Source: Treponema sp. (lineage in GTDB: Bacteria; Spirochaetota; Spirochaetia; Treponematales; Treponemataceae). From it: 39,067 bases of DNA. Made by a program: the position numbers and the translations under genes. Shown in pieces: positions 8,962 through 32,793 of the stretch; the first letter of the stretch is position 1, and each line of letters opens with the position of its first letter. The stretch is from assembly GCA_017622055.1 (NCBI GenBank), contig JAGARY010000371.1:1-39067 (forward strand), read 5' to 3'. Below the pieces are notes generated by a model. It ran no database searches. It saw nothing but the letters and a program-made list of their open reading frames with translations, and was not told the DNA's origin.

Positions 8962-9879
8962 ATGCATTTAAAAGATTTTGAACAGATAAAAGATAAAATC
9001 AATACACAATATTTATTTGGAAGTGATAGTTCTTTAGCTAATTTGTATTTGTTAAAAGATGTTTTAAATATTTTATGTTACCAAAAAAATGATATTTTAT
9101 TCCGCCAATACGATTTTACTGATAATATAAAAGGCTTTGCATTCCCAATTTCATTAAATCCTGATTTTACAATTGAAGAAGTTTTTGAACATTTTTTTAA
9201 AGAAATTAACAAAAATTCAGATGAAAATATTCATTTTTGCTATTTTACAGAAGAACAAAAGGCACTTTTTGATAAATTTTTGCAAAAAAAAGGGCACTCT
9301 GTTGAATGGAACTCAAAACGCGAAGACAGCGACTATTTGTATTTACAATCAGATTTAGCAGATTTACCTGGTTCAGAATATCAAAAAAAGCGAAATCACG
9401 TATCAAAATTCATCAAAAAACACGAAAAAGAATATTCATTTACATATTTTGATGCTTCAACAATCACACCTAAAATAAAAGAAGATTTTGTAAAAGTTAC
9501 AAAAAAATGGTTATGTGAATTTTCTGGAAATATTGATAATACAGTGGCAAATGAAAGCAAATCTATGGAATTTGCAGTAAATCATCTGTCCTCTTTTGAT
9601 TTTTTTGGTGGAATTTTATACATAAAAGAAAAACCAAGAGCAATCACTTTGGCAAGCAAAATCTCTGAAAAAGTAATAGATATCCACTTTGAAAAATGTC
9701 TTTCTGAAGCAGCAAAAGACGGTGGCTACGCAATGATAAACAATCTTTTTGCCAAAGAATGTAAAAAATTTAAATATATAAATCGGGAAGAAGATTTAGG
9801 AATTGAAGGATTACGAAAAGCAAAACTTTCTTATAAACCAGAAATCATTTTAGATAAATATTATGGAAAGTTGATTTGA
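8962..9879 (+). CDS. DUF2156 / phosphatidylglycerol lysyltransferase-like GNAT protein
   Basis: DYLY..DLADLPG..YQKKRNH, IHFEK and INREEDLGIEGLRKAKLSYKP signature. Confidence 0.88.
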   Translation: MHLKDFEQIKDKINTQYLFGSDSSLANLYLLKDVLNILCYQKNDILFRQYDFTDNIKGFAFPISLNPDFTIEEVFEHFFKEINKNSDENIHFCYFTEEQKALFDKFLQKKGHSVEWNSKREDSDYLYLQSDLADLPGSEYQKKRNHVSKFIKKHEKEYSFTYFDASTITPKIKEDFVKVTKKWLCEFSGNIDNTVANESKSMEFAVNHLSSFDFFGGILYIKEKPRAITLASKISEKVIDIHFEKCLSEAAKDGGYAMINNLFAKECKKFKYINREEDLGIEGLRKAKLSYKPEIILDKYYGKLI

Positions 9880-9909
9880 TAAAAAAATGACAAAATTTGC
9901 AAATTTTCT

Positions 9910-10239
9910 TTAAATTTTATCTAAAAAATCATCAATTTGTGAATTTACATCCGCTAAAATGTTCTTTTTTAATTGTTCTGCCAATTCTGTTTTTGTTGGC
10001 TTTTTTATATTAGAATTTGATTTTTCATCTTTATGTTCTTCAAAAAGCGTAATAGGCGGAACGTCTAATCCTTCCGCAATTTTTTCTATGGTAGAAAGTT
10101 TTGGAATATTTCTGTAAGTTTCCATCAAACCAATATAACTTGTAGAAGTGTTACTATATGCCGCAAGTCTTTCTTGAGAAATCCCCTTTTCTTTTCTAAT
10201 TCGTTTAATATTTTCAATTACAGTTTTTTCCAAACTCAT
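9910..10239 (-). CDS. XRE-family helix-turn-helix regulator
   Basis: NIKRIRKEKGISQERLA...YIGLMET...PKLSTIEKIAEGLDV. Confidence 0.92.
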   Translation of the reverse strand: MSLEKTVIENIKRIRKEKGISQERLAAYSNTSTSYIGLMETYRNIPKLSTIEKIAEGLDVPPITLFEEHKDEKSNSNIKKPTKTELAEQLKKNILADVNSQIDDFLDKI

Positions 10240-10357
10240 ACATATATATTATGATATATTTTTTCTTGTAAATGTTTGCGTATCTGATATAATTTTTATA
10301 CTAAAGTTAATACATTTCTAAAAAAAATTGAATTTTTTTTAAATTATTATTCAAACG

Positions 10358-10388
10358 GTCATTAAATGACACAGTCAACATTTATACT
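10358..10388 (+). promoter_or_regulatory. Putative operator GTCATTAAATGACACAGT plus -10 box TATACT (copy 1)
   Basis: Identical 18-mer at 13888; core GTCAT-TAA-ATGAC is an inverted repeat; TATACT lies 7 nt downstream. Confidence 0.65.
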
Positions 10389-10442
10389 ATTTTGATGCAA
10401 ATGATACTAAGGTATCGTCAATCTGATTTTTTGGAGGAATTT

Positions 10443-11693
10443 ATGGCTAATATTTATTCTACTAGCGGCGGTGCATTAAACTATTTAAGAATGATTTCTG
10501 AAAATCTAGAAAACAATCATTTTACCATTTCAAATAGTAAAAATGTTATGTTTGCACTCAATTACTTAAATAGATTTTTTGGCACAACAACAGAAGAAAC
10601 TGTAATTCTTACAGGATTATTATCAACAAAATTTAATTCCGACTTTGATTTTGTAACAATCGCTGATATAGCAAAAAACTTTAATACAACTCCTTTTAGA
10701 ATATTAGAATTCTCTGAAGAAATTGAATCTTTAATAGACAAAAACTTAATCAGATTTCATCAAACAGAACCTACAAATATTAAAGTATATGTAATAAACG
10801 ACAATGTTCTTCAAGCAATTAATAAAAATAATTCTTCTAGAATAACAACAAAATCCGAAATTCAAAAACCTACATCTATGAGATTTATTGAACCTAATAA
10901 AATTAAAGAAACAAAACTTTTTTATTCATCAGAAATTGAAAATGAAATTACTAGATTGGAAGAATCTTTATCTGAAAAAAATTTTATGGAAATTCAAAAT
11001 CGGCTTGAAGAAAAAGGAATGGCAAAAGGAATTACAATTATGCTTCATGGATATTCGGGAACTGGAAAAACAGAAACCGTTTATCAAATTGCTAGAAAAA
11101 CAAACAGACCAATTTTATACGCAGATTTTGGATCTATTATTAGTAAATGGAGTGGAGAAACAGAACAAAACATTTCTGCACTTTTTAAGGAATACAAAGC
11201 CATCTACACTGCATTTACAGAAGAAGATAAAAATGTACCAATACTATTAATTAACGAAGCAGATACATTATTTGGAAAAAGAAGTACTTCCCCAGAAACT
11301 GGATTTTTAATTGCACACAACACACTTCAAAATTTGTTGCTAGATCTTATGGACAGTTTTGACGGAATTATGATTATTACCACAAATATTGCAGAAAATT
11401 TTGACCAAGCATTTGAACGAAGATTTCTGTTCAAAATAAAATTTGAAAAGCCAAATGAAGAAATGCGAAAACTTATGTGGAAATCTAAAATATCTGGAAT
11501 TTCGGAGGAATCTGCTGGAAAATTCGCAAAAAAATACGATTTTTCTGGTGGTCAAATCCAAAATATCGTCAAAAAAATCACTTTAAACGAAATCCTTTCG
11601 GGCCACAAAAACAACGACGACGAAATAGACGACCTCTGCAAAACCGAAAAACTCAACAAACAAGAAAACCACCACATTGGCTTTGGCGGGTAA
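10443..11693 (+). CDS. AAA+ ATPase with N-terminal winged-helix-like region
   Basis: Walker A GYSGTGKT, SKWSGETE pore loop, variant Walker B LLINEAD, TTN sensor 1, DQAFERRF Arg finger, C-terminal IGF; GGAGG RBS before ATG 10443. Confidence 0.92.
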   Translation: MANIYSTSGGALNYLRMISENLENNHFTISNSKNVMFALNYLNRFFGTTTEETVILTGLLSTKFNSDFDFVTIADIAKNFNTTPFRILEFSEEIESLIDKNLIRFHQTEPTNIKVYVINDNVLQAINKNNSSRITTKSEIQKPTSMRFIEPNKIKETKLFYSSEIENEITRLEESLSEKNFMEIQNRLEEKGMAKGITIMLHGYSGTGKTETVYQIARKTNRPILYADFGSIISKWSGETEQNISALFKEYKAIYTAFTEEDKNVPILLINEADTLFGKRSTSPETGFLIAHNTLQNLLLDLMDSFDGIMIITTNIAENFDQAFERRFLFKIKFEKPNEEMRKLMWKSKISGISEESAGKFAKKYDFSGGQIQNIVKKITLNEILSGHKNNDDEIDDLCKTEKLNKQENHHIGFGG

Positions 11694-11804
11694 AAACTTG
11701 CGGATTTGATATAGTGTGATATACTAGGAAAGATATAAAAATGGATTCTACTATCAAAAAAGTTTGATAGAGAAAATAAATGCTATACGAGGAGATATAG
11801 AAAC

Positions 11805-12458
11805 ATGAAATGTACATGTGGAAATGAACTATTAGAAGGTTCAAAATTTTGTAACAACTGTGGGGAGCCAGTTAGAATTAATTGCCCAAACTGCGGAACA
11901 TATTTGCTAGAAAATTCAAAGTTTTGTCATATTTGTGGTGCAGATCTTGAAGAAACTTATGAATTTATTGATAAAGAAACTGGTGCGAAATTTAAATCAA
12001 ATATTTCACCAGATGTAATTAATAATTGTGCAAGTGAAATTTCAACTGGGTTTGATTTTGAAGAATGGTGTGATAATCATATAACAGATATTAATACACG
12101 AAAATTTTTAATGTCAGCGAAAAATAAGGTAGTTTGGATTGGTGATAAAGCCATTCAAATAGGAAAATTTTTATGGTCTATTGTATTGAGATTCCAAGAA
12201 ACATTCAAAGGAGTTATTTCCGCTGCTGTTGTAGGCTTTATTTTTGCACAAATTCCAATTTTAGGAGTTATTTTAGGACCTTTAGTTTTTGCAGTTTTGG
12301 GAACAGCTTGGGGCGTAAAAGGTCTTGCTCAAGATGCAGTAAAAAGCTTGTCTCCTGAAACTAGAGAAAAAATTGAAAGTACAATGCAATCAACTTTTGA
12401 CAAATTAGGATTATCAATTTCAAATAAAGCTGCTCTAGCAATTGAAGCTAACCTGTAA
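11805..12458 (+). CDS. Double zinc-ribbon protein with C-terminal membrane helices
   Basis: CTC..CNNC..CPNC..CHIC; hydrophobic VISAAVVGFIFAQIPILGVILGPLVFAVLG; GAGGAG RBS. Confidence 0.8.
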   Translation: MKCTCGNELLEGSKFCNNCGEPVRINCPNCGTYLLENSKFCHICGADLEETYEFIDKETGAKFKSNISPDVINNCASEISTGFDFEEWCDNHITDINTRKFLMSAKNKVVWIGDKAIQIGKFLWSIVLRFQETFKGVISAAVVGFIFAQIPILGVILGPLVFAVLGTAWGVKGLAQDAVKSLSPETREKIESTMQSTFDKLGLSISNKAALAIEANL

Positions 12459-12469
12459 ATTATACAAAT

Positions 12470-12515
12470 TATGATATACCAAATAGGATTATAAAAAAAT
12501 ATTTGGTATATCATA
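12470..12515. repeat. Perfect 16-bp inverted repeat with 14-nt spacer
   Basis: TATGATATACCAAATA (12470-12485) / TATTTGGTATATCATA (12500-12515). Confidence 0.85.
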
Positions 12516-12531
12516 CAAAAAAGGAGATAAT

Positions 12532-13593
12532 ATGAATAATAATGATTATAATCCAAAAAGACCTATAAAACAAATTGGAAAAGATGCTGACACGTTGAAA
12601 GATGGCAAAAGGGAAGCAGGACTTTATTTGACTATAGGAGGAACTACAGCTCTATGGTTATTAATATCATCTTTAGGAAAAACTTGGTGGTTCTTAATTT
12701 GGCTAGGGGCTAATCCTATTCATATTGCAAATCCCGCATTATTTGGATCTGCAATAGGGATTATTTGTATTGCAACATTATTCACAATAACACGAGTTAT
12801 TTTCTGCCAAAGAAGTATTATCCGCGGACTTGAAAACTATTCTCCTCAGGGTCGTGAGGAATATGCAAGAATTATATTCGGTCAGATTGTTTATTTGATT
12901 AGTAGATTGGATTTACAGGAACAAGAACAATATAGAAATTATCTATTAACACGATTACATAAAATGCTTGGTTTCGATAAAGAAGAAGCTAACAAAATTT
13001 TAGATAATTTTTTTAATAAAAAAATTGAAGAATTAATAGTTGAAATTGAAAAAAAACCTTCAGAAGAATTAGATAGAGATTCTGTTATACTTTTAAAAAT
13101 GAATTCTGTGAAGGAGCTTAATGATATAAAAAATGAAATAATTGGTACAGATAAAAAAACAAAAATAAAAGTAGATAAAATTTTAAAAGAAATAAATCAA
13201 ATTTATCTAAAAGGAATAAAAATAGAAGATATTAATCTCAGTTCAAAAACTCAAGGTTTGAAACTATTATATGTTTTAAAATTATTAACTGATCAATCAG
13301 ATATGTTTGAAGATGCGTCTGAAATAAAAAGAAATTATCTTTATAGTTTAGACATAAAAGATGATTCAATCTCGAAAGAACTTTGTGAGAAAAAACGAGT
13401 AAGAGATTATGAAATAAAATTATATTTAAAAATGCTAACTGTTCCTAATGAGAATAAAGACTTGATATTAAAAGAAGTTAAAGAAGAATTAACTAATGTA
13501 GCAAATCAATATCAAATAAATAAAGAATCTAAAAAAAATAATAATAAACGATATATCGCTAAAACAATAGATAAGCTTAAGAAAATGATTTAA
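12532..13593 (+). CDS. Hypothetical membrane protein with helical (possibly TerB-like) C-terminal region
   Basis: AAGGAG RBS; hydrophobic segments at about aa 30-92; charged helical remainder; the TerB resemblance is a weak inference. Confidence 0.7.
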   Translation: MNNNDYNPKRPIKQIGKDADTLKDGKREAGLYLTIGGTTALWLLISSLGKTWWFLIWLGANPIHIANPALFGSAIGIICIATLFTITRVIFCQRSIIRGLENYSPQGREEYARIIFGQIVYLISRLDLQEQEQYRNYLLTRLHKMLGFDKEEANKILDNFFNKKIEELIVEIEKKPSEELDRDSVILLKMNSVKELNDIKNEIIGTDKKTKIKVDKILKEINQIYLKGIKIEDINLSSKTQGLKLLYVLKLLTDQSDMFEDASEIKRNYLYSLDIKDDSISKELCEKKRVRDYEIKLYLKMLTVPNENKDLILKEVKEELTNVANQYQINKESKKNNNKRYIAKTIDKLKKMI

Positions 13594-13614
13594 CAAAAAG
13601 GAACACCTAAATCC

Positions 13615-13851
13615 ATGCCAAACTACTATTGTGTATATTGCGGAGCTAAATACTCCGCAATCAATTTACTAACATTAAATCTTTGTCCTAGAAATCCAGA
13701 AAATCCTAGGGGAAATCACAAACTCTACGAAGGAAGCGAAAAACCACACTATTTTTGCAAATATTGTGGTGCTAAATATCCTACAATTGGAATGATGACT
13801 CTAAACTTGTGCCACAAAAGTCCGTTGGGAAGACATTCACCAGCTTTATAA
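13615..13851 (+). CDS. Small tandem CCCH zinc-binding protein
   Basis: Two repeats of CxYCGAKY-x6-TLNLC-x7/10-H. Confidence 0.8.
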   Translation: MPNYYCVYCGAKYSAINLLTLNLCPRNPENPRGNHKLYEGSEKPHYFCKYCGAKYPTIGMMTLNLCHKSPLGRHSPAL

Positions 13852-13887
13852 AAAAACTTTAAAAAATTTTAAAATTTTTTTCAAAAT

Positions 13888-13919
13888 GTCATTAAATGAC
13901 ACAGTGTGTGTTGTATATT
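13888..13919 (+). promoter_or_regulatory. Putative operator GTCATTAAATGACACAGT plus -10 box TATATT (copy 2)
   Basis: Exact 18-bp match to 10358-10375; TATATT lies 8 nt downstream. Confidence 0.65.
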
Positions 13920-13947
13920 ATTTTCACAAAAATTTACGGAGGTTTTT

Positions 13948-14436
13948 ATGGAAATTAAACAATTTGTTTCTTTTGAAGAAGCTCAAGCATTCGCAAAAGA
14001 AAATAACAAAAAAGTGTATGTGTTCAAAAAAATCCTTTCGGAAAAAGATGAATGGAATAAGCAAGAAGAAGCTACAGGTCCTTTTGATTTAGGGTTTATT
14101 ACAAATCCTAAAAACGGCCGAGTCAAGGGCTTGAACGAAGTGTCCCTTGACCGGACGTATTACTTAAAAGATTATTCTTTGGGTAAGGCACTTTTGTTAG
14201 AAGATTACAAAAAACAAAAAAAAGTTCTTGAAGAAGCCTATGCGTCCCATGTAATTAATTCAAGACAGTATTGGGCCAAGAAAAAACAAATGGAATACAT
14301 CATCAATGCTGCAGAAAAATTAAATCATGATGTTGTAATTATTCCAGACGAAGGCTTTGCAAAATCTGTAAATCGTTATTCTATGAGTATTACTTTCCGT
14401 AATTACCCATTGTATGTAATTGGTGTTGAAATTTAA
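13948..14436 (+). CDS. Hypothetical protein, paralog A
   Basis: GGAGG RBS before ATG 13948; N- and C-termini similar to the next ORF. Confidence 0.8.
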   Translation: MEIKQFVSFEEAQAFAKENNKKVYVFKKILSEKDEWNKQEEATGPFDLGFITNPKNGRVKGLNEVSLDRTYYLKDYSLGKALLLEDYKKQKKVLEEAYASHVINSRQYWAKKKQMEYIINAAEKLNHDVVIIPDEGFAKSVNRYSMSITFRNYPLYVIGVEI

Positions 14437-14489
14437 GTTTTATTATCGTCACATCTTAATTTTAACAAACAAATAATTCGGAGGAAAAC

Positions 14490-15137
14490 ATGGATATTAA
14501 ACAATTTGGTTCTTTTGAAGAAGCTAAAATTTTTGCAAAAAATAATAACAAAGAAGTTCGTCTTTTCTTAAAAAAAGATGGAGAATCTAACTGGATTCCA
14601 GGTATGACTATGTCAAATCCTATTGATTTAAGAGAATTTTACAATACACATTGGACTTACACAAATTTCCCTGGTTATGATTATGAAAAACCTATTTCTT
14701 ATAATCTTGACACTACAAAAGAATTTAGTAAATTGCATAAAAACACTTTTGAAATTCCAGAAAAAAAATGTTGTAAATGTTGTACATTAAAAAAATTCAT
14801 CTCTACTTACAATAAAAAATTAAAAGAATTTCAAGAAAATCAATTTACGCTAAAATTTCCAGATGATTATGCTTCAATTCCAAAGGGTTTGCCTATTGAA
14901 GAAGTTTTAAAACTTATTCAAAAAAAATCAAAAATAAGAAAAGAACATGATAAAATGCTCGAAAAACAACTCACTCCTCCATTTCTTTCAGATATGGAAT
15001 ATGTTATCAAAGTTGCACAGGAAAATAATGATGATATTGTAATTATGGAAGATAATTGTATGTGGTCTGAAAAAAGATATCACATGACTTATCAATTCTT
15101 TAATTTCACTTTAGCAATTGGAGTAGAAAATAACTAA
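14490..15137 (+). CDS. Hypothetical protein, paralog B
   Basis: GGAGG RBS; MDIKQFGSFEEAKIFAKNNNK versus MEIKQFVSFEEAQAFAKENNK in paralog A. Confidence 0.8.
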   Translation: MDIKQFGSFEEAKIFAKNNNKEVRLFLKKDGESNWIPGMTMSNPIDLREFYNTHWTYTNFPGYDYEKPISYNLDTTKEFSKLHKNTFEIPEKKCCKCCTLKKFISTYNKKLKEFQENQFTLKFPDDYASIPKGLPIEEVLKLIQKKSKIRKEHDKMLEKQLTPPFLSDMEYVIKVAQENNDDIVIMEDNCMWSEKRYHMTYQFFNFTLAIGVENN

Positions 15138-15142
15138 CAAAA

Positions 15143-15161
15143 GGGGCAACTAGTTTGCCCC
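15143..15161. other. Short GC hairpin between paralog B and the ankyrin gene
   Basis: GGGGCAA-ctagt-TTGCCCC; no U-tract on +; short U-run on the minus strand. Confidence 0.45.
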
Positions 15162-15175
15162 AACAAGAGGAAAAA

Positions 15176-16345
15176 ATGAAAGAATCTGATTTTAAAGAAA
15201 TGCTTGATATTTTAATTTATGCTACTGAAAAAGAAAATGTAGAAATAATTAAAGCTCTTTTAAAAGACTTTGATAATTTTACAAATGAAGAAAAAGGTTT
15301 GCTTTTACATGTATTATCATTTTCTCTAACCGATGCAAATTACGAATTTGTTTCAAAAATAATTTTTGAATATTTTCCTATGGATTATTCTGATGAATAT
15401 GGAAATCTTCTTCACTATGCATGTGCTAGTAAAAGCCTTAAAATGGTAAAATATCTTGTTGAAAATGGATTTGATATAAATCAGACTAATTCTTTTGAAA
15501 ACACTCCATTTTTAATAGCATGTACTGATTCTTCTACCGCTGTTTTAAGATATTTAGTTGAAAAAGGAACTGATATTTTTGCAAAAAATATTAATGGTAG
15601 AGGTGCTCTTCATTTCTGTGTAAAAGGGTCTAATATTGAAAACCTAACATATCTTCTTTCTTTAGGATTAGATATTGAAGCTCGTGATAATGATGGTTTT
15701 ACACCATATCTTATTGCAATTTCGTATCAAGAAGATGTAGAAAATGCTTCTAAAATTCTTGAACTATTAAAAGAAGCTGGTGCAGATTTTAACGCAAGAG
15801 ATAATGAAGGAAATACAGATTTGCATCTGACTATGAAAAGAAAATCTGGCATTATTACAGCCTGCCATTTAACTAGAAGAAAAAATAAACTTTTTGCTCC
15901 AAATAACAACGATGAAACTTGTTTAGACCTTGCTTTGGCTCTTTCTGATGATGAAGATTTAATTAATATAACTTTGCAAGACTTAAAAATCTATTTAATC
16001 AAACGGGCGGCTCAAAATCCAAATCCAGCTGCGTTTAAAGCATTATGTATTTCAGGAATAAATCCAAACTGGAATAACCACCATGAAATAACAAGCTTAA
16101 TGTTGACAGCAAAAAATAACACAAATCCTGACATTATTTCTTCGTTAATTCATGAATTCAACTGTAGCACAAACGCAGTTGATATTTATAATAGAAATTT
16201 TTTGCACTATGCGGCTGTAAATAAAGACAAAACTATCTATTATAAATTTTTAGATGAATATAAACATCTGTGTGTAAAAGATGAAGATGGATATACTCCA
16301 CAACATTATTTAGAGCATCCAGAAGATTTTATTCATTTAGTTTAG
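15176..16345 (+). CDS. Ankyrin-repeat protein
   Basis: Repeats GNLLHYAC..VKYLVENGFDIN, TPFLIAC..YLVEKGTDI, GALHFC..GLDIEARDNDGFTP, GADFNARDNEGNTDLH; GAGG RBS. Confidence 0.92.
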   Translation: MKESDFKEMLDILIYATEKENVEIIKALLKDFDNFTNEEKGLLLHVLSFSLTDANYEFVSKIIFEYFPMDYSDEYGNLLHYACASKSLKMVKYLVENGFDINQTNSFENTPFLIACTDSSTAVLRYLVEKGTDIFAKNINGRGALHFCVKGSNIENLTYLLSLGLDIEARDNDGFTPYLIAISYQEDVENASKILELLKEAGADFNARDNEGNTDLHLTMKRKSGIITACHLTRRKNKLFAPNNNDETCLDLALALSDDEDLINITLQDLKIYLIKRAAQNPNPAAFKALCISGINPNWNNHHEITSLMLTAKNNTNPDIISSLIHEFNCSTNAVDIYNRNFLHYAAVNKDKTIYYKFLDEYKHLCVKDEDGYTPQHYLEHPEDFIHLV

Positions 16346-16384
16346 CTATAGAAAAGTTAGCTTATTTTGAAAACTTGAGGTTTT

Positions 16385-17092
16385 ATGGACAATTTTAATT
16401 CAAAAATGGACAAAAAGATTAATGATTTTGTAATAAAAAATCACTTAACTCCAGATGAAAACAAATTTTCTGCAATTACTGATGGACTTGTTCATCCTAA
16501 AACATATTTTGCCAGTAAATATAAAATCTTATGGATTTTAAAAGAACCTTACGATGAAATTGAAATAAGTGAAGAAGGCGGAATTCCTTGTGGCGGCGGT
16601 TGGTCTGCTGCAGGAAATCTTGCCAATTATGATAAAATTTCTGAAAATTACGCAAATAAAACTTATAATCGCATTGCAAATACAACTTATTGTATCTTAA
16701 ACAATCTAAAAAGATTTGAATCTAAAATTTCTGAAGAAGATGCATACAAAATGTTTCTTTCTATTGGAATTATGAATGTTAGCAAAATGCCAAATCTTAC
16801 TTTGTCAGATAATTCGTATATTCAAAAACAATATGAAATTTGGAAACCAATTCTACTTGAACAAATTCAACTTTACAATCCAGACATTTTGATTTTTGGA
16901 AATACCTTTAGTTGCTTTAGAAAAGATATTTTTACAAATGAAGAAATTACTAAACAACAAGTAATAGATCAGCGGGCTTTTTTACGAAACAAAAAATTAT
17001 ACTTAAATTGGTATCATCCATGCTATTTTGCAATGTCTGATTCAGATTACATAAATCCCTTGCTGGATGATATCAATTCTAATTTACTGTAA
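16385..17092 (+). CDS. Hypothetical protein, probable uracil-DNA-glycosylase-like fold
   Basis: KILWILKEP (motif-A position), MNVSKMP, EQIQLYNPDILIFG and WYHP (motif-B position). Confidence 0.6.
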   Translation: MDNFNSKMDKKINDFVIKNHLTPDENKFSAITDGLVHPKTYFASKYKILWILKEPYDEIEISEEGGIPCGGGWSAAGNLANYDKISENYANKTYNRIANTTYCILNNLKRFESKISEEDAYKMFLSIGIMNVSKMPNLTLSDNSYIQKQYEIWKPILLEQIQLYNPDILIFGNTFSCFRKDIFTNEEITKQQVIDQRAFLRNKKLYLNWYHPCYFAMSDSDYINPLLDDINSNLL

Positions 17093-17093
17093 T

Positions 17094-17996
17094 TTAATTT
17101 ATAAAGAACAACGAGAAGAACATATACACACTTCCTGCCAACATAAAAATGTTTCCTACAACGTGCATATATTTGATTTTTCTTAATGAATAGAAAACTA
17201 ATCCTACTAAGTAGAAAACTCCAGACAAAATCAACATTTTAAAACTTTGTGGAGTTAAAACTTCATACAAAGTTTTACAAACAGCTAATCCCGACCATCC
17301 TACTACAAAATAGAAAATAATATTTAATTTTTCAAATTTTGTTCCAAAAACTGCATAAATTACGGCACCAATAATAGATAATCCCCAAACAATTCCAAAT
17401 AACACCCAACCAGTTACATCTTGAATTTTTGTTAAAGTGTACACTGTGTAAGCAAAACCAATAATCAAAAATGATGCAACGTGTGAAAGTCGCTTAAAAA
17501 CTTCTTTTGCTGTTATATTTGTAAGTGCGTGATGCAAAACAGAAAACAAATACATCAAAATCATTGAACTTCCAACTAAAGCATACATTACAGTTGTTAA
17601 AGTTACAAAAGATTCTGCTTTTTCAATTGCTATAGATTCCAAAATTGCTGTAGCGGCAATAAATAATCCAAAACCAAACCCTTGAACAATTGCACTAAAA
17701 ATTTCTTCACCAATTGTAAATTTTCTTAATTTTGAATTAAGTTCAAAAAACTCTTTTTCTTTTTGAATTTTTTGTTCTGCTTTTTTCTTTGCACGTTCTG
17801 TTTTTGCATAGTTTGAAGCAGCATATTTTGCTTTTAATCTTTCTGGATCTTTTGCATATTGAATATTTATTTCTTGAACAGATTTTTCATAGTCATCTTT
17901 TAATTGTGCAATTCTTAATTTTTTCTTCTGTTTTAAAGAAACTAATGTAGATTTTCTAACTGCTTTTGAAGCAATTTCATCTTCTCTTTTTGACAT
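17094..17996 (-). CDS. Hemolysin III (PAQR) family membrane protein with charged N-terminal extension
   Basis: GEEIFS, MYLFSVLHH, F..LSH..SFLIIG..YT and YMHVVG; about 7 TM helices. Confidence 0.85.
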   Translation of the reverse strand: MSKREDEIASKAVRKSTLVSLKQKKKLRIAQLKDDYEKSVQEINIQYAKDPERLKAKYAASNYAKTERAKKKAEQKIQKEKEFFELNSKLRKFTIGEEIFSAIVQGFGFGLFIAATAILESIAIEKAESFVTLTTVMYALVGSSMILMYLFSVLHHALTNITAKEVFKRLSHVASFLIIGFAYTVYTLTKIQDVTGWVLFGIVWGLSIIGAVIYAVFGTKFEKLNIIFYFVVGWSGLAVCKTLYEVLTPQSFKMLILSGVFYLVGLVFYSLRKIKYMHVVGNIFMLAGSVYMFFSLFFIN

Positions 17997-18017
17997 TTTC
18001 TCACCTCAAGAATTAAT

Positions 18018-18818
18018 TTATTTATTTTTTCGTCTAAAAATTTCATATAACAACACACCAGTTGCCACAGAAACATTCAAACTATCAATTTTTCCGCATG
18101 TAGGAATTGAAACAATTGTATCGCATTGTTTTTCTAATAATTGAGAAATTCCTTGCCCTTCACTTCCCATAATCAAAACAGTTTTTTCTGCAAAGTCAAT
18201 TTTTCCGCAAGTTTCTCCGCCTGCATCTGCCCCGTAAACCCAAAATCCCGATTCTTTTAATTTTTCTACAGTTCGTACCAAATTATTTACAATTGCCACT
18301 GGAACCCAAGCCGAAGCTCCTGCGCTACTTCTTGCAATTACATCATTATTTTCAATGTCGTTAGAACTTTTATGCTCTGGAATTACAACAAGAGAAACCC
18401 CAAATTGATCACAACTACGAATAATTGCACCAACATTATGAGGATCTGTAATTTTATCTAATACAACAACTGTAATTGATTTTTTTTCAGATAAGAATGA
18501 TTGTTCTGCTTGTTTTAGCCAAGAATCAAATTCAACATAATTTGCAGATGAATTTTCTTTATTTTGAACATCTTTTTGCAAGACAATTCCACGATGATCT
18601 TGCAAAGCTGCAGGTAAATCCTTTACTAAATCATCAAGTTTTGAATTTTCAACTTGAACAGAACTTACCCCAGCCTCTTTTGCAGTTGCCAAAATCTTTT
18701 TTACCCTTGGTCCAACTTTGCTATAAAAAAGTTTTACATTTTGAGGATTTTTTTTAGATTTTTGAATGGCATTTACGCTTTCTTCAATTGCGTGAAACCC
18801 TGTAACAACTGCTTGCAT
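18018..18818 (-). CDS. rlmB: 23S rRNA (Gm2251) 2'-O-methyltransferase, SpoU/TrmH family
   Basis: LDKITDPHNVGAIIRS, GSEGQG and SLNVSVATGVLLYE motifs. Confidence 0.9.
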   Translation of the reverse strand: MQAVVTGFHAIEESVNAIQKSKKNPQNVKLFYSKVGPRVKKILATAKEAGVSSVQVENSKLDDLVKDLPAALQDHRGIVLQKDVQNKENSSANYVEFDSWLKQAEQSFLSEKKSITVVVLDKITDPHNVGAIIRSCDQFGVSLVVIPEHKSSNDIENNDVIARSSAGASAWVPVAIVNNLVRTVEKLKESGFWVYGADAGGETCGKIDFAEKTVLIMGSEGQGISQLLEKQCDTIVSIPTCGKIDSLNVSVATGVLLYEIFRRKNK

Positions 18819-18840
18819 AGTAAAAAGATTCCTTATTTAC

Positions 18841-19335
18841 CTATTTACCACAACATTTTTTGTATTTTTTTCCACTTCCGCAAGGACATGGATCGTTTCT
18901 TCCAACTTTTTCACCAACGCGAGTAACTGTAGTAGGAATTACGTTTCCTGCAACATATTTCCATTCGCCATCAATTTGTTTGAACAAAGAAATTTCGTGG
19001 TGAAGATTGTGAATATTATGAAGTGTGTAATCTGCTTGGAATTCAACAATTGCTTCATCATCTTTTTCGCCTTTTTCTGTGCGCAAGATTTTTAAGCCAT
19101 TCCATTGAGCTTCTTTACTCCAATCTTCAGTTGCTTTTCTGTCAATTTCTGCAATTCCATCACCTTCGCTACAAGAATTAATGATAAAATCGATTTCTTG
19201 TTTTTCGTAAGATGAATAACGAGCACGCATTAATGCTTCTGCACTTGGTGCTTTTACACTACCTTTAATAATTGGTTCACAACATTCGCTATAAGATTTT
19301 CCCGAACCACAAGGACACATTTTATTTTCACTCAT
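18841..19335 (-). CDS. YchJ family protein with SEC-C motifs
   Basis: [23 protein letters not shown] and [18 protein letters not shown]. Confidence 0.92.
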
Positions 19336-19590
19336 AACTTTCAGTATATCAAAATTAATGCAAAATTGGAAGAGTCTGACTTTTTATGATTTTTTACCAT
19401 AGAGATTTATTCAATTTATTCATAGATTAATATTTTTCTTTTTGAACTTTCACTTGTAATATTTATTTAGTCTAAAACTCAAATTACAAACGGTGTTCAA
19501 CTTCATACCCAAGTATGACACTGTATAGATTGCCACATGTTCTGCTTCATGTCATTACAAACAAAATCTCTGCCATTGCCGAGATAACTC

Positions 19591-19619
19591 TGTCATTGCG
19601 AGCGAAGCGAAGCAATCTA
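19591..19619 (+). repeat. GTCATTGCGAG repeat, half copy
   Basis: TGTCATTGCGAGCGAAGCGAAGCAATCTA, the exact reverse complement of 35049-35077. Confidence 0.85.
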
Positions 19620-19723
19620 CGAGGACACGAAGTGAAACTTGATAAGCACACAGAAGCGTGCCCTAACCAGACACATTTGAGTTTATGACTAACAGATATT
19701 TTTCTAGAGAGGAATATTTTTCT

Positions 19724-20896
19724 ATGGATAATTTTACATTTTATAGCCCAACAAAATTTGCGTTTGGAAAAGGAACAGAAAGTCAAGCTGGTTCATTGGT
19801 AAAAGAATTTGGTGGAAGCAAAGTTTTGCTTCATTTTGGTGGTGGTTCAGTTGTAAAATCTGGACTTTTGGACAGAGTAAAAAATTCTTTAAAAGATGCT
19901 GGAATTAGTTTTGTGGAACTTGGTGGAGTTCAGCCAAATCCAAGAGATGATAAAGTTTACGAAGGAATTGAACTTTGTAAAAAAGAAGGTGTAGATTTTA
20001 TTTTGGCTGTTGGTGGCGGTTCGGCAATTGATAGTGCAAAAGCAATTGCAATGGGCGTTTGCTACGATGGCGATTTCTGGGATTTTTATTCGGGAAAAGC
20101 GCAAGCGGCTAAAGCGGTGCCTGTGGGAACTGTGCTTACGATTGCGGCTGCTGGAAGTGAAGGTTCTGGAGATTCTGTTATTACAAAAATTGATGGAATG
20201 CTAAAACGCGGTGCTGGTGCAGAATGTATTCGTCCAAAATTTTCTATATTAAATCCTGAATTAACTCAAACTTTGCCTGCATATCAAACTGCGTGTGGAA
20301 TTACTGATATTATGGCTCACGTTTTTGAACGTTATTTTACAAACACAAAAAATGTAGAAACTACAGACCGACTTTGCGAAGCAGTTCTTTTGAGTATGAT
20401 TAACGAAGCTCCAAAAGTAATTAAAAATCCTAATGATTATGAAGCTAGAGCAAATATTATGTGGGCTGGAATGGTTGCTCATAACAATATTGTTGGTGTT
20501 GGACGCAGCCAAGATTGGAACAGTCACGGAATTGAACACGAACTTTCTGCTTTGTACGATTGTGCTCACGGTGCAGGTCTTTCTGTAATTATGCCAAACT
20601 GGATGAAGTTTGTAATGAATCACGACATTATGAGATTCTGCCAAATGGCAACAAGAATTTGGGGCTGCAAAATGGACTTTAGTAATCCAGAAAAAACAGC
20701 TATGGAAGGAATTGAAGCTTTTAGAACTTTCCTTACAAGTATTGGAATGCCTTCTACAATTACAGAACTTGGCGGAAAAGAAAGCGACATTCCAACTTTG
20801 GTAAAAACCTTTGGACTTCCAGAAGGTGGAAAAACAGGCGGTTTTGTTCAACTTTCTAGCGAAGATGTTGCTGCTATTTATAAAATGGCATTGTAG
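19724..20896 (+). CDS. Iron-containing alcohol dehydrogenase (butanol dehydrogenase/YqhD-like)
   Basis: GGVQPNP, AVGGGSAIDSAK, AAAGSE, H-x3-H and HGAGL; start ATG 19724 after GAGG. Confidence 0.93.
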   Translation: MDNFTFYSPTKFAFGKGTESQAGSLVKEFGGSKVLLHFGGGSVVKSGLLDRVKNSLKDAGISFVELGGVQPNPRDDKVYEGIELCKKEGVDFILAVGGGSAIDSAKAIAMGVCYDGDFWDFYSGKAQAAKAVPVGTVLTIAAAGSEGSGDSVITKIDGMLKRGAGAECIRPKFSILNPELTQTLPAYQTACGITDIMAHVFERYFTNTKNVETTDRLCEAVLLSMINEAPKVIKNPNDYEARANIMWAGMVAHNNIVGVGRSQDWNSHGIEHELSALYDCAHGAGLSVIMPNWMKFVMNHDIMRFCQMATRIWGCKMDFSNPEKTAMEGIEAFRTFLTSIGMPSTITELGGKESDIPTLVKTFGLPEGGKTGGFVQLSSEDVAAIYKMAL

Positions 20897-29088: not shown

Positions 29089-29652
29089 TTATGGAAATCT
29101 CAATCCAACAACAACATGTAATCCTAAGGCTCCAAATATATTTTCTTGTTTTCCATAACCTTCATAAATATTGGAATATCCAGAAGTAACAAAGCCAATA
29201 CCTGCTCCACCAAAAAACCATTTTCTATCTTTTCTACTTAAAACTAAATCTAAACTTCCAAAATAATAGAAATTACAATAACCTCCCAACATTGTAAAAA
29301 CACCAGGATTATTATTAAAAACTAATTCCATTGTCAATTTATCGAATTTTGCAACGGAAAATTCAAACACAATAGGAACACCAAATGAAAAACTATTTTC
29401 CATCATACCAACACAAACACCAGTCATAAAGTGAAAAGGAATTTCTGTATTTTTTGTTCCAAACTCCCACATACAATTTGTTAGTGCACCAAAAGTAAAA
29501 CCTATTGTATTTTTTTCAGAATCTGAAATATCAAAACAGTTTTCATAATGAGTTAATTTTACTCCAAATAAAGCCTCATTTTGAATTACAATAGAACCAA
29601 AACAAAAATTACAAAGTAAAAATCCTACAATAAAAATAAATCTCTTTTTCAT
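29089..29652 (-). CDS. Exported small beta-barrel-like protein, copy 2
   Basis: Signal peptide; Gly/aromatic amphipathic strands; ends GLHVVVGLRFP; paralog of 30958-31545. Confidence 0.75.
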   Translation of the reverse strand: MKKRFIFIVGFLLCNFCFGSIVIQNEALFGVKLTHYENCFDISDSEKNTIGFTFGALTNCMWEFGTKNTEIPFHFMTGVCVGMMENSFSFGVPIVFEFSVAKFDKLTMELVFNNNPGVFTMLGGYCNFYYFGSLDLVLSRKDRKWFFGGAGIGFVTSGYSNIYEGYGKQENIFGALGLHVVVGLRFP

Positions 29653-29673
29653 AAGAACTCCCTAATCTGCACG

Positions 29674-30930
29674 CTATTTATTATTGCCTTCTAATTTTTC
29701 AAAATATTCTTCAGGTATAATTTTTTCACATTCAAAAAATTGATTTTCCAAAACATCATAATAAAAAATCTCTGCCTTTTGTGTATTCCAATCAGTTTTA
29801 TTAATAAAATAAATTCTATTATCTCTTACTTCTATTTTTCTATAAAACAAAGAATTTCTTTTAACTAATGATTCATTTTCTAATGTTTCCAAATTTATCT
29901 TTTGAATTTCAAAATAACCGTATAATGTGTGCAAAGCTATGTAATAATCATTTTGTACTTTCACAAAATCTACCAAACAATCATCGAAATTCTCCAATAC
30001 AAATTCTCTTTGTGTTTTGTCTTTTTTATCTATAACAACTAAACTATCTGAATACTTCCAAGAATCATCAATCCTTTTTCTTCTACTTTTATTACAAACT
30101 ATAAAATCTGAATCTATATATTCAAAATCATAAAAATCTTCATTAATCCAACCTTTGTAATCATCGTATGTGTTGGAATCTCCAATACAATCAAAAACAA
30201 GATAATCCTTTATTTCTGTATCTGTAGCAAAATCATAAGAACAAATTCTTTCAAACTTTTTTCTGTTTTCTTCATTTTCAAAACGCTCTAGATACCAACA
30301 AACACCGTTAGAATCAACAAAAACATCTACACTATAGGCATCTTTCACACTTAATTTTTTTGTTTTAGTTATAGATTTTGAATTCACATCAAAGTACAGT
30401 AATAAATTTTTTTTGAATCCTTCACAAAAAATGATTTTGTAGTCTTTTCCCTGTTGATAGTTTATATTACCAAAATTATCATATACTTCATCTTTAAATA
30501 TTTCCTTTGAATTTAAAACTGTTTCTTCAACGGTATTTTTATTGTTTTGCATACTAAAAATACTTTTGTTTTCTTTACCAAAATAACCAAATCCTAAACC
30601 TCCAATATATTCTAAATTACCATTTTCATTCTTAAACTGAATCAACAAATCTCCAGAAGTATCATCTTTTGGTGAATAAACATAATCAAATACTGTATCT
30701 GTTTCCCAATCGTAAATAAAATAATAACTACCCAAAGTTTTAGTAATAGCTCTAGAATTAAAATTCAAATTTGCATCAAATCTAAAAATAAAAGGATTAT
30801 TTAACGAATCAAAAGATTTATATTCCACTTTACTTAATCTTTCTGAATAATCTTTTTCTGGAACGTAATATCCACAAGAAACAAAACAACTCAACACTAA
30901 AACACAAATTAAATAACAAAATTTTTTCAT
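29674..30930 (-). CDS. Lipoprotein, beta-rich (propeller-like), copy 2
   Basis: FVSC lipobox; paralog of 31564-32793. Confidence 0.75.
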   Translation of the reverse strand: MKKFCYLICVLVLSCFVSCGYYVPEKDYSERLSKVEYKSFDSLNNPFIFRFDANLNFNSRAITKTLGSYYFIYDWETDTVFDYVYSPKDDTSGDLLIQFKNENGNLEYIGGLGFGYFGKENKSIFSMQNNKNTVEETVLNSKEIFKDEVYDNFGNINYQQGKDYKIIFCEGFKKNLLLYFDVNSKSITKTKKLSVKDAYSVDVFVDSNGVCWYLERFENEENRKKFERICSYDFATDTEIKDYLVFDCIGDSNTYDDYKGWINEDFYDFEYIDSDFIVCNKSRRKRIDDSWKYSDSLVVIDKKDKTQREFVLENFDDCLVDFVKVQNDYYIALHTLYGYFEIQKINLETLENESLVKRNSLFYRKIEVRDNRIYFINKTDWNTQKAEIFYYDVLENQFFECEKIIPEEYFEKLEGNNK

Positions 30931-30957
30931 ATCATCTCCAATATCTTTTTTTAACTC

Positions 30958-31545
30958 TTACCAAGTAGGAAATCTAACACCAACAAAAACATGAAGTCCT
31001 ATAAAAGCTCCAATATATATATTATTTCCGTATCCTTCATATTGTGCAGCACTAAAAGTTCCCTCCGAACTAATTCCCACTCCACCATAAAACCACTTTC
31101 TATCTTTTCTACCAAAAGTCACATCAATACTCGGACTATAGAAAAAATATTCCCCTCCTTTTATTCCAAAACCTATTCCCAAGTTTGGATTCACTTGTAA
31201 TTCAATCATTGTTTTTTCAAATTTTACCAATGTAAATTCAAAAACCATTGGAAAAGTCATTGAAAAAAATCCATGACGCGAAAATCCTAACTCAATTCCT
31301 GTCATAAAATGAAATGGTGTTTCCGTATTTTTTGAATTAAATTCCCACATTAAACTCCCATTCAACGAAGCCAATTCCATTATAAAATCACAAGAAAATT
31401 CTTTTGGATTATCAACTCTAAAACAATCTTCATCGTATCTAATATCATAACCTAAAGGAATTATTCCATTTTGAACTACAATTCCTGCAAAACAAAAATT
31501 ACTCAATAAGCATAAACTCAAAACTATTAATATTTTCTTTTTCAT
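30958..31545 (-). CDS. Exported small beta-barrel-like protein, copy 1
   Basis: Signal peptide NFCFA; MWEF..KNTE.PFHFMTG and RKDRKWF; ends GLHVFVGVRFPTW. Confidence 0.75.
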   Translation of the reverse strand: MKKKILIVLSLCLLSNFCFAGIVVQNGIIPLGYDIRYDEDCFRVDNPKEFSCDFIMELASLNGSLMWEFNSKNTETPFHFMTGIELGFSRHGFFSMTFPMVFEFTLVKFEKTMIELQVNPNLGIGFGIKGGEYFFYSPSIDVTFGRKDRKWFYGGVGISSEGTFSAAQYEGYGNNIYIGAFIGLHVFVGVRFPTW

Positions 31546-31563
31546 CTCAACTCCTGTGTTGTT

Positions 31564-32793
31564 TTATTCCACACTTTTCAAAACATCATCCAAAACAAAA
31601 CCTTCCATTTCCTTAAACTCATTATTCAAAACGTCATAATAAGCAATTCTTGTGTCTTCTTCATTAACATTTATAAAAAATACTTTTTCTTCTCTAAAAT
31701 GCATTCTATACAAATTTTCATTATTTTCATGCAAAAATTCCACACCATTCTTTTCTTGATTTAGCTTATAAATTTCCCGATTAGAATAATCATCTGTTTC
31801 CGAAAATAAATAATATTCATTTTTATATTCATATACTTTTTCAATTGATTTGTTTTCAAAATATATTTCATCGTACAAATAATCTTCATTATTTTTTTTA
31901 TTCATAATCAAATAGGAATATTTATTTAAGGTTTTATTATCTTTTCCATATTCTTTTTTTTCTATTATCAAAAACTGTTCATCTGAATAAGTTATTGAAT
32001 AAGAAAAATTATTTTCCCACGTTCCTCCAAATTCATCTTTTATGTATTTTCCTGTATTTTGTTCAAACTCAAAACAATTTTTCTTTAATTCATCAGTTTT
32101 ATAGTTATAATATCCAAAATAAGCATATTCTTTATTTTCTTCCTTAGTTTGTATTTCCACAAACCAAATAGTACCTGTAGCATCAATCCAGCAATCTGAA
32201 AAATAACCATCTTTTTTTATTATTTTTTCTTTAAAAACATCTTTTGTATTTACATCTATATAAGTAAATTTTATTTTATCTTCATCTTTAAAAATCAAAG
32301 CTAAAACATTACTCTCATCATCGCTAGAATTAATTACATCTCCACCATAATCAGAAAAATCTTCACGATTTAATCTTTCTATTTTATTCCCAGAAGAATT
32401 CATAAAATAGTATTTATCTTCAGAAGTTGTATAATCAGAAAACCAATTTATATACACATAATTACCATCATTAGTTTTTCTTTGTAGCAAGAAATAATTT
32501 AAATAGGAATTATCACTTGGTACATAAACAAAATCAAAAACAGATTCCGTTTCCCAATCATAAATTACATAATATGCCCCCCTTCTTCTTTCATAAACTC
32601 TTCCATTATCTTTTTCTGCTAAAAAATCTAAATAAGTATTCAATCTTAGAACAAAAGGTTTATTTAAATGATTAAAAGATTTATATTCTTGTTTTTCCAA
32701 AATTTTTGAATAATCTTTTTCTGGAACATAAACATGACAAGAAAAAAAACTCACTGAAAAAATCAAACAAAAACCAAAAAATAATTTTTTCAT
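31564..32793 (-). CDS. Lipoprotein, beta-rich (propeller-like), copy 1
   Basis: FFSC lipobox; YVPEKDYS, IYDWET and YYDVL shared with copy 2; GGAGG RBS. Confidence 0.75.
   Translation of the reverse strand: MKKLFFGFCLIFSVSFFSCHVYVPEKDYSKILEKQEYKSFNHLNKPFVLRLNTYLDFLAEKDNGRVYERRRGAYYVIYDWETESVFDFVYVPSDNSYLNYFLLQRKTNDGNYVYINWFSDYTTSEDKYYFMNSSGNKIERLNREDFSDYGGDVINSSDDESNVLALIFKDEDKIKFTYIDVNTKDVFKEKIIKKDGYFSDCWIDATGTIWFVEIQTKEENKEYAYFGYYNYKTDELKKNCFEFEQNTGKYIKDEFGGTWENNFSYSITYSDEQFLIIEKKEYGKDNKTLNKYSYLIMNKKNNEDYLYDEIYFENKSIEKVYEYKNEYYLFSETDDYSNREIYKLNQEKNGVEFLHENNENLYRMHFREEKVFFINVNEEDTRIAYYDVLNNEFKEMEGFVLDDVLKSVE

Follow-up and report, generated by a model that had tools for sequence, protein, structure and literature searches.

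The stretch examined here (the window: 39,067 nucleotides (nt), contig JAGARY010000371.1 of the Treponema sp. assembly GCA_017622055.1) contains, at positions 9910..17092, an island of accessory genes that raises a simple question: do these genes form a system of their own, or is it a shared promoter element that links them to something larger? The window is one contig of a 2.5-Mb, 82%-complete metagenome-assembled genome (MAG), and the sequencing runs that hold its sequence are animal gut metagenomes. ORF (open reading frame) coordinates and Pfam matches confirm the layout described in the initial annotation, with eight ORFs on the + strand divergent from an XRE gene on the − strand, and the identical 18-mer reported there ahead of two sub-operons lies at 10358-10375 and 13888-13905. 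Beyond that annotation, the core of the 18-mer proved to be a palindrome, and one gene, here called paralog A, contains a 72-nt repeat. The island is, on balance, probably a patchwork of accessory genes whose two palindromic boxes put both sub-operons under one inducible regulon, with a WYL-domain activator encoded elsewhere in the genome.

A Likely Palindromic Operator at Two Promoters

Both boxes consist of the palindrome GTCA-N5-TGAC (10358-10370 in box 1 and 13888-13900 in box 2) plus a right-arm extension, which together make up the + strand features 10358..10375 and 13888..13905. A -10-like hexamer follows on the same strand, TATACT (10383..10388) 12 nt past box 1 and TATATT (13914..13919) 13 nt past box 2. 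The exact 18-mer occurs in the MAG only at 10358 and 13888, the next matches carrying 3 mismatches. Since some 18-mer repeat also arose when the bases of the region were shuffled, in 5 of 300 trials, identity alone is modest evidence; the evidential weight rests on position and palindrome structure. A scan for sigma-70 signals and terminators stayed at chance level, and Rfam gave no match in window positions 9000-20000.

The palindrome itself occurs at 13 sites in the MAG, 10 of them outside ORFs, and 9 are followed by a -10-like hexamer 11-14 nt on, a spacing rule fixed after the sites were seen. Nine control patterns made of the same letters gave 0-3 sites each. Two of the nine sites are the boxes of the island; the seven others lead genes for YfbU, an RNase_T exonuclease, an HD/Cas3-like fragment, a sigma-70 factor, an AAA_21 fragment and two unknowns.

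The regions upstream of the two sub-operons are 80% alike over 61 nt, as would be expected if the two 18-mers were a locally duplicated promoter fragment, standing before genes with no shared defence role that might serve general stress or protein quality control. Local duplication may explain why the two copies are identical, but it does not explain the motif, which recurs with the same spacing genome- and genus-wide before restriction-modification (R-M), bacteriophage exclusion (BREX) and Cas12a genes, and we consider this explanation improbable.

Genes behind the Box in the Genus and in Metagenomes

Across the genus, 42 of 201 genomes have the box with its -10 hexamer, at 66 sites in all; the control gave 11 sites, spread over 10 genomes. 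Gene context, read at 30 of the 66 sites, separated the loci into two classes. In the AAA/AGA-core class, with 11 loci, it is mostly lipoprotein-like ORFs that follow the box. The TGACA class comprises 19 loci, 18 of them from other genomes than the present one, and in 9 of these 18 the first or second gene downstream is an R-M gene, coding for HsdM, a C5 methyltransferase, or a GmrSD or NOV_C nuclease. The boxes of the window are hybrids that combine an AAA core with a TGACA tail.

The metagenome scan yielded 41 box loci, 20 of which have an R-M, BrxA or Cas12a gene in first or second place downstream (17 recognised by Pfam, the other 3 because they copy ORFs that were scanned; 47 of the 57 downstream ORFs were scanned, and 3 loci had no downstream ORF). 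When 7 loci identical to GTDB loci are removed the count becomes 16 of 34, among which further loci may share sources. Bases lying outside the query extend the palindrome, with C in 23, A in 26 and G in 29 of 38 cases, and the extended consensus, CAGTGTCA-N5-TGACACTG, accounts for most of the tail of the 18-mer. In individual loci, the box was seen 32 nt before a Cas12a (Cpf1) gene (L264) and before brxA (L260). A TAT-core variant stands before FliM/FliG-like and unknown genes in L257, L265, L271, L278 and L280, so that the targets of the box are not only defence genes.

Since R-M, BREX and CRISPR genes follow the box in many genomes of gut spirochaetes, the genes of the island are likely co-induced defence or stress genes. 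The inducible defence or damage-response regulon suggested in the initial annotation is thus likely, and better supported than that annotation could make it, but it appears as a dispersed, genus-wide regulon and not as the local system then envisaged.

Candidate Regulators of the Box

The closest regulator gene at hand encodes the divergent XRE/HTH_3 protein (9910..10239, − strand; PF01381, E 1e-12). A self-contained system, in which this protein bound both boxes and controlled eight cooperating genes, would agree with its position opposite box 1, with the intactness of the island in strains from other studies (contigs X8 and X14), and with one locus of a relative, L250, which gathers homologs of XRE, of the CCCH zinc-finger protein of the island and of a longer AAA protein near a box. 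L250, however, also has two WYL genes beside its box; none of the seven additional box sites with a -10 hexamer in the MAG has an XRE gene listed alongside, and XRE is likewise absent beside the box at the exact sites of relatives. No searched genus genome holds the whole block. As the box occurs so widely without it, the neighbouring XRE protein is probably not the binder, and we regard a self-contained system as very improbable. A 59%-identical paralog of this XRE protein is encoded on C485 (L248:1861-2166), near an uncharacterised 418-aa ORF and with no box nearby.

We infer that the box is bound by a WYL protein, with rather good likelihood. The MAG encodes two regulators of winged helix-turn-helix (wHTH)-WYL-WCX architecture, on C184 and C153, of which the C184 protein is the best candidate; its closest solved sequences match weakly (E about 2e-3) and are presumably the DriD structures. 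WYL genes stand next to boxes in a number of unrelated loci (L075/L129, L121, L125, L201, L226, L250 and L261), and an ortholog of the C184 gene is present in 6 of the 11 AAA/AGA-core loci. Among genomes with a C184 ortholog 14 of 20 bear the box, compared with 27 of 180 without one, a comparison confounded by kinship and partly circular. A second WYL clade occurs in 24 of 32 TGACA-class genomes and in 85 of 168 others, by a hand count that kinship also confounds.

Several observations weigh against the regulon as proposed, or against a WYL protein as its activator. The exact 13-mer alone is only weakly enriched (31 sites against 20 in controls), and many box-led genes, such as those for lipoprotein-like ORFs, FliM and unknown proteins, are not recognisable as defence genes. 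As a yardstick, R-M genes were assumed to stand behind about 1% of random promoters. The ankyrin genes of relatives, discussed below with their AAA neighbours, are preceded by a box in just 1 of 14 loci, and two of three further ankyrin loci (L098 and L099) lack an adjacent AAA gene. Neither lexA nor recA, of which this MAG holds only a 5' fragment, has a box. WYL loci chosen regardless of the motif were not enriched for it (2 of 30; 5 of 40, with controls at 1-6), and the C184 gene has no adjacent box in its own genome. The second WYL clade, the commonest beside TGACA-class boxes, is present in 109 of 200 relatives and was not found in the 82%-complete MAG, which does encode an HTH_26 protein. 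A small HTH_26 gene, finally, flanks the box in 11 loci: directly upstream of it in L211, L212, L223 (C148 of the own genome) and L233 and likewise in L260, L266, L279, L286 and L289, and downstream in L258 and L283, with L258 the only Pfam-confirmed case in the metagenome loci and the others assigned by likeness.

The unenriched WYL loci, the HTH_26 protein of a MAG in which that WYL clade was not found, and the HTH_26 genes flanking the box would suit the same dispersed defence regulon with a different binder, a small Cro/C1-type (HTH_26) controller-like protein or repressor. Controller operators precede their own gene, whereas the box usually lies 3' of the HTH_26 gene. The fixed spacing of 12-13 nt to the -10 hexamer and the GWCA-N5-TGWC core also match the WYL activators DdaA and SiwR, and for these reasons we hold an HTH_26 binder to be unlikely, and prefer the WYL protein.

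If so, a dimeric WYL-domain activator, possibly the C184 protein, would sense the single-stranded nucleic acid that DNA damage or phage infection gives rise to; bound to the box, in the -35/-26 region, it would recruit RNA polymerase and thereby turn on both sub-operons together with the other box-led genes of the cell.

Comparison with Known Regulons

The closest parallel is the DdaA regulon of Moraxellaceae. As reported in PMC12392091, DdaA controls repair, R-M and CRISPR-Cas genes through the motif CGWCA-N5-TGWCG, and the core GWCA-N5-TGWC, the dispersed sites and the position before R-M and CRISPR-Cas genes are all shared with the box. In Moraxellaceae, however, recA, uvr and ssb stand behind the DdaA motif, which is found about 50 bp ahead of the start site, whereas the box ends 12-13 nt before the -10 hexamer and none of the nine own-genome sites leads recA or lexA. 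The outer bases of the motif and the phylum also differ, and DdaA is a named binder where ours is a candidate. A regulon of DdaA proper is therefore not what we see.

The WYL regulators SiwR, PafBC and DriD offer a second comparison. PMC10693628 places the SiwR palindrome between -35 and -10, as is the case here, and the candidate regulator of the MAG shares the wHTH-WYL-WCX architecture; the motif is another one, and the targets of the box are mainly mobile defence cargo. This genome thus has two features of WYL regulons: several of its promoters carry a palindromic operator at a set place ahead of the -10 hexamer, and a wHTH-WYL-WCX regulator is encoded.

The Island as a Patchwork

The island is a patchwork and not one conserved system. 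When 40 relatives were searched at the DNA level, the matches were to flanks, to single genes and to the repeat, and never to the whole block; nor does any of the genus genomes searched hold it, so that the conservation of gene neighbourhood proposed as a check in the initial annotation was not borne out, the parts recurring separately. The alternative that the annotation itself had offered, a collection of independently acquired genes, agrees with this result. Its remark that the locus matches no named system also stands, as PADLOC gave only single generic domains and NCBIfam no whole-system match, which is equally what one would expect of a duplicated promoter before genes unrelated to defence. 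An empty site joining both flanks was not seen among the relatives, and the 8 fetched loci holding HlyIII show it with other neighbours. Gene GC within the island (26-36%) brackets that of the genome (31.8%), and the island is therefore without compositional anomaly. Pfam matches among its ORFs comprise HTH_3, AAA, DZR and Ank; the membrane protein, paralogs A and B and the last ORF (16385-17092) gave none.

Within the species the island is stable, since single contigs of other studies (X8, X14) span it. In run X11 the main cover ends near 12193 and no contig joins across, from which we claim no loss of the right half. Contigs X15 and X16, from RNA libraries, cover pieces of the AAA, paralog B, ankyrin and UDG-fold genes, and cannot show expression.

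The Ankyrin-AAA+ Pair

The first sub-operon opens with a classic-clade AAA+ ATPase of 416 aa (10443..11693, +; PF00004), with a helical/winged N-domain, a C-terminal IGF and a predicted structure of Vps4/FtsH/TRIP13-like fold. The second includes an ankyrin-repeat protein of 389 aa (15176..16345, +; Pfam Ank). In the genus, 12 full-length ankyrin orthologs were found in 11 genomes, and an AAA ortholog of about 415 aa adjoins the ankyrin gene in 12 of 12 matches (one AAA gene being truncated where its contig stops). The gene contexts are of several kinds, and the order is ankyrin-AAA in 11 of the 12. The two proteins are likely functional partners. In the window the pair is split, its members lying about 4 kb apart with one in each box-led sub-operon, and one relative's locus (L060) has an ATCA-N5-TGAT box before each of its AAA, ankyrin and UDG-fold genes and also contains two WYL genes. 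The ankyrin protein might act as a substrate adaptor or sensor that presents substrates to a hexameric AAA+ unfoldase. A prediction of the AAA-ankyrin complex scored 0.00 and counts neither way. Generic ankyrins dominated a search of 1.84 billion representatives with the ankyrin profile, and a related-locus search seeded by a single ankyrin ortholog returned 4 loci.

The AAA+ protein resembles those of IetAS and of TRIP13 in cyclic-oligonucleotide-based anti-phage signalling (CBASS) in its classic-clade ATPase and in sub-threshold matches to the IetA and TRIP13 models (for IetA, 100.8 bits against a cut-off of 510). It differs in that its partner is an ankyrin protein and the island has no protease, HORMA or cyclase gene: no S8 protease is encoded among the island ORFs, none was noted beside 10 orthologs, where only some of the neighbours were scanned, and the PADLOC scan of the nine island ORFs gave neither the CD-NTase nor the HORMA gene that type III CBASS would have.

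Among the relatives, L061, L062 and L124 carry an ankyrin-AAA pair with degenerate Walker A/B motifs, followed by a ClpP-like gene, an arrangement that would sit well with the role in protein quality control considered above together with promoter duplication. In L061 and L062 a parA-like/repA-like cassette lies near the pair, which suggests carriage on an integrated element. In three genomes (L053/L117, L055 and L116), nSTAND3-plus-ankyrin proteins of 1000-1200 aa are encoded within 10 kb of the pair.

The UDG-Fold Gene and Other Cargo

The last ORF (16385..17092, +) encodes a protein whose AlphaFold2 model (pLDDT 81) has the alpha/beta fold of the uracil-DNA glycosylase (UDG) superfamily, with conserved motif positions. 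The top VIA rows are all from this superfamily, the best being 1l9g (Z 9.7, root-mean-square deviation 4.4, 172 residues aligned). Fold searching, as proposed at the outset, thus backs the UDG fold through the model, while the Foldseek E-values reach only 4.6e-3 or higher; a PDB sequence search and a Pfam search with the UDG alignment gave nothing significant. Homologs occur in 12 of 200 genus genomes, and RTCA-N5-TGAY lies upstream in 7 of 14 homolog loci, compared with 0 of 14 at four other spacings, two pairs among the loci being near-identical kin. At the level of fold, the protein resembles Brig1 and other UDG-like anti-phage glycosylases (PMC11078745; 10.1101/2025.10.29.685425) in its divergent UDG fold and accessory, defence-like setting. 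Like these enzymes, it might excise damaged or phage-modified bases.

The double zinc-ribbon protein (11805..12458, +; Pfam DZR), with one predicted transmembrane helix, is narrowly distributed: it has an ortholog in 0 of 200 genus genomes (E<=1e-12), and its residues 50-217 have 7 database relatives. The membrane protein (12532..13593, +) belongs to no known family, with no match in Pfam, PADLOC, NCBIfam or PHROG. Paralog A (13948..14436, +), which opens the second sub-operon, has 162 aa here and 138 aa without the repeat; it has no ortholog in 200 genus genomes, where it matches only through its repeat. Paralog B (14490..15137, +; 215 aa), also of no known family and without a match in Pfam, PADLOC, NCBIfam and PHROG scans, resembles paralog A in its two terminal parts (51% and 45%, each over 47 aa). 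In the ESM Atlas, neither paralog A nor the membrane protein had a usable match. The zinc-ribbon, membrane and paralog genes probably joined the island recently, as passengers.

Between the membrane gene and box 2 lies a microprotein gene (13615..13851, +), whose product has, by sequence, two CxxC..C..H (CCCH) zinc-finger repeats. Like the membrane protein and paralog B, it was compared with the own genome and the fetched loci. Homologs 42-53% identical occur in the WYL-containing loci L125 and L249-L251. The latter hold a conserved cluster, in three genomes, of the CCCH protein, a 239-aa ORF, XRE and one or two WYL genes, and two of them contain ATCA-N5-TGAT boxes.

At window positions 12473-12512, between the zinc-ribbon and membrane genes, two perfectly matching 14-bp inverted arms enclose an AT-rich spacer of 12 nt, and the adjoining 5' end of the membrane gene is swapped for other sequence in runs X9 and X14. 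Elsewhere in the window, at 29089-32793, a low-GC, strongly skewed stretch contains two tandem pairs of paralogous genes (about 190 aa plus about 410 aa, lipoprotein-like).

A 72-nt Repeat within Paralog A

Paralog A contains, at 14087..14161 (+), a dispersed 72-nt repeat with two hairpins (z -5.2 as single-stranded DNA) and a 3-nt ATT duplication, inserted in frame as 24 codons. This repeat gave 81 blastn rows in the own genome, 74 of them full copies. Long ORFs cover 82% of the genome, yet 63 of the 74 copies lie outside ORFs; the 11 inside fall in 10 genes and are all in one of two stop-free frames. The host proteins include SufBD, a Mur ligase (C182), in whose gene the repeat is tandem, MATE, a PhoU-domain protein, GH3, GH5 and TPR proteins. 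The target is TT(G/T)ATT-like, with ATT duplicated, and 17 of 200 genus genomes contain matches.

In paralog A the repeat is polymorphic between strains. In contigs from four other studies exactly 72 nt are missing, with an ambiguity of 3 bases, an empty allele shown for this gene only, and among 23 database homologs of 138 aa the 4 that were aligned each lack exactly these 24 residues. Being multicopy and in frame in unrelated protein genes, the repeat appears to work, by analogy, like a Rickettsia palindromic element (RPE). In PMC10969869, RPEs are likewise short structured repeats found in frame in unrelated genes; they measure about 150 bp, whereas the present element has 72 nt, two hairpins, an ATT duplication and strain polymorphism. 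Two other identities were considered and rejected. A miniature inverted-repeat transposable element would not fit, with no terminal inverted repeats and no longer form; a Y1 transposase was not found in the 82%-complete MAG, where other transposase families were not searched for. A CGTC tetranucleotide near one end recalls the CGTC-tagged repetitive extragenic palindromic (REP) elements (PMC3733652), which have short stems of 8-9 bp and loops of 4-5 nt, unlike the longer bulged hairpin and second hairpin seen here. The repeat thus presents a still-polymorphic in-frame insertion into proteins, a phenomenon known mainly from Rickettsia; a literature search found no report of such a repeat in Treponema.

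Conclusions

A wider picture can be drawn tentatively. Gut treponemes may run a LexA-independent, WYL-activated immune regulon whose 21-bp operator travels with mobile R-M, BREX and Cas12a cassettes. New defence genes could then be identified by this operator, and two such new anti-phage effectors might be the ankyrin-AAA+ pair and the UDG-fold family. This is a possibility that we hold to be less than probable as a whole, and in the open-access literature we found no paper on such a spirochaete regulon or on the ankyrin-AAA+ pair. Two candidates follow that can be tested, the pair and the divergent UDG-fold family. If the picture is true, control of bacterial immunity in a co-ordinated way, as DdaA exerts it in Moraxellaceae, would be extended to another phylum, and the motif would provide a way to nominate defence genes outside classical islands.

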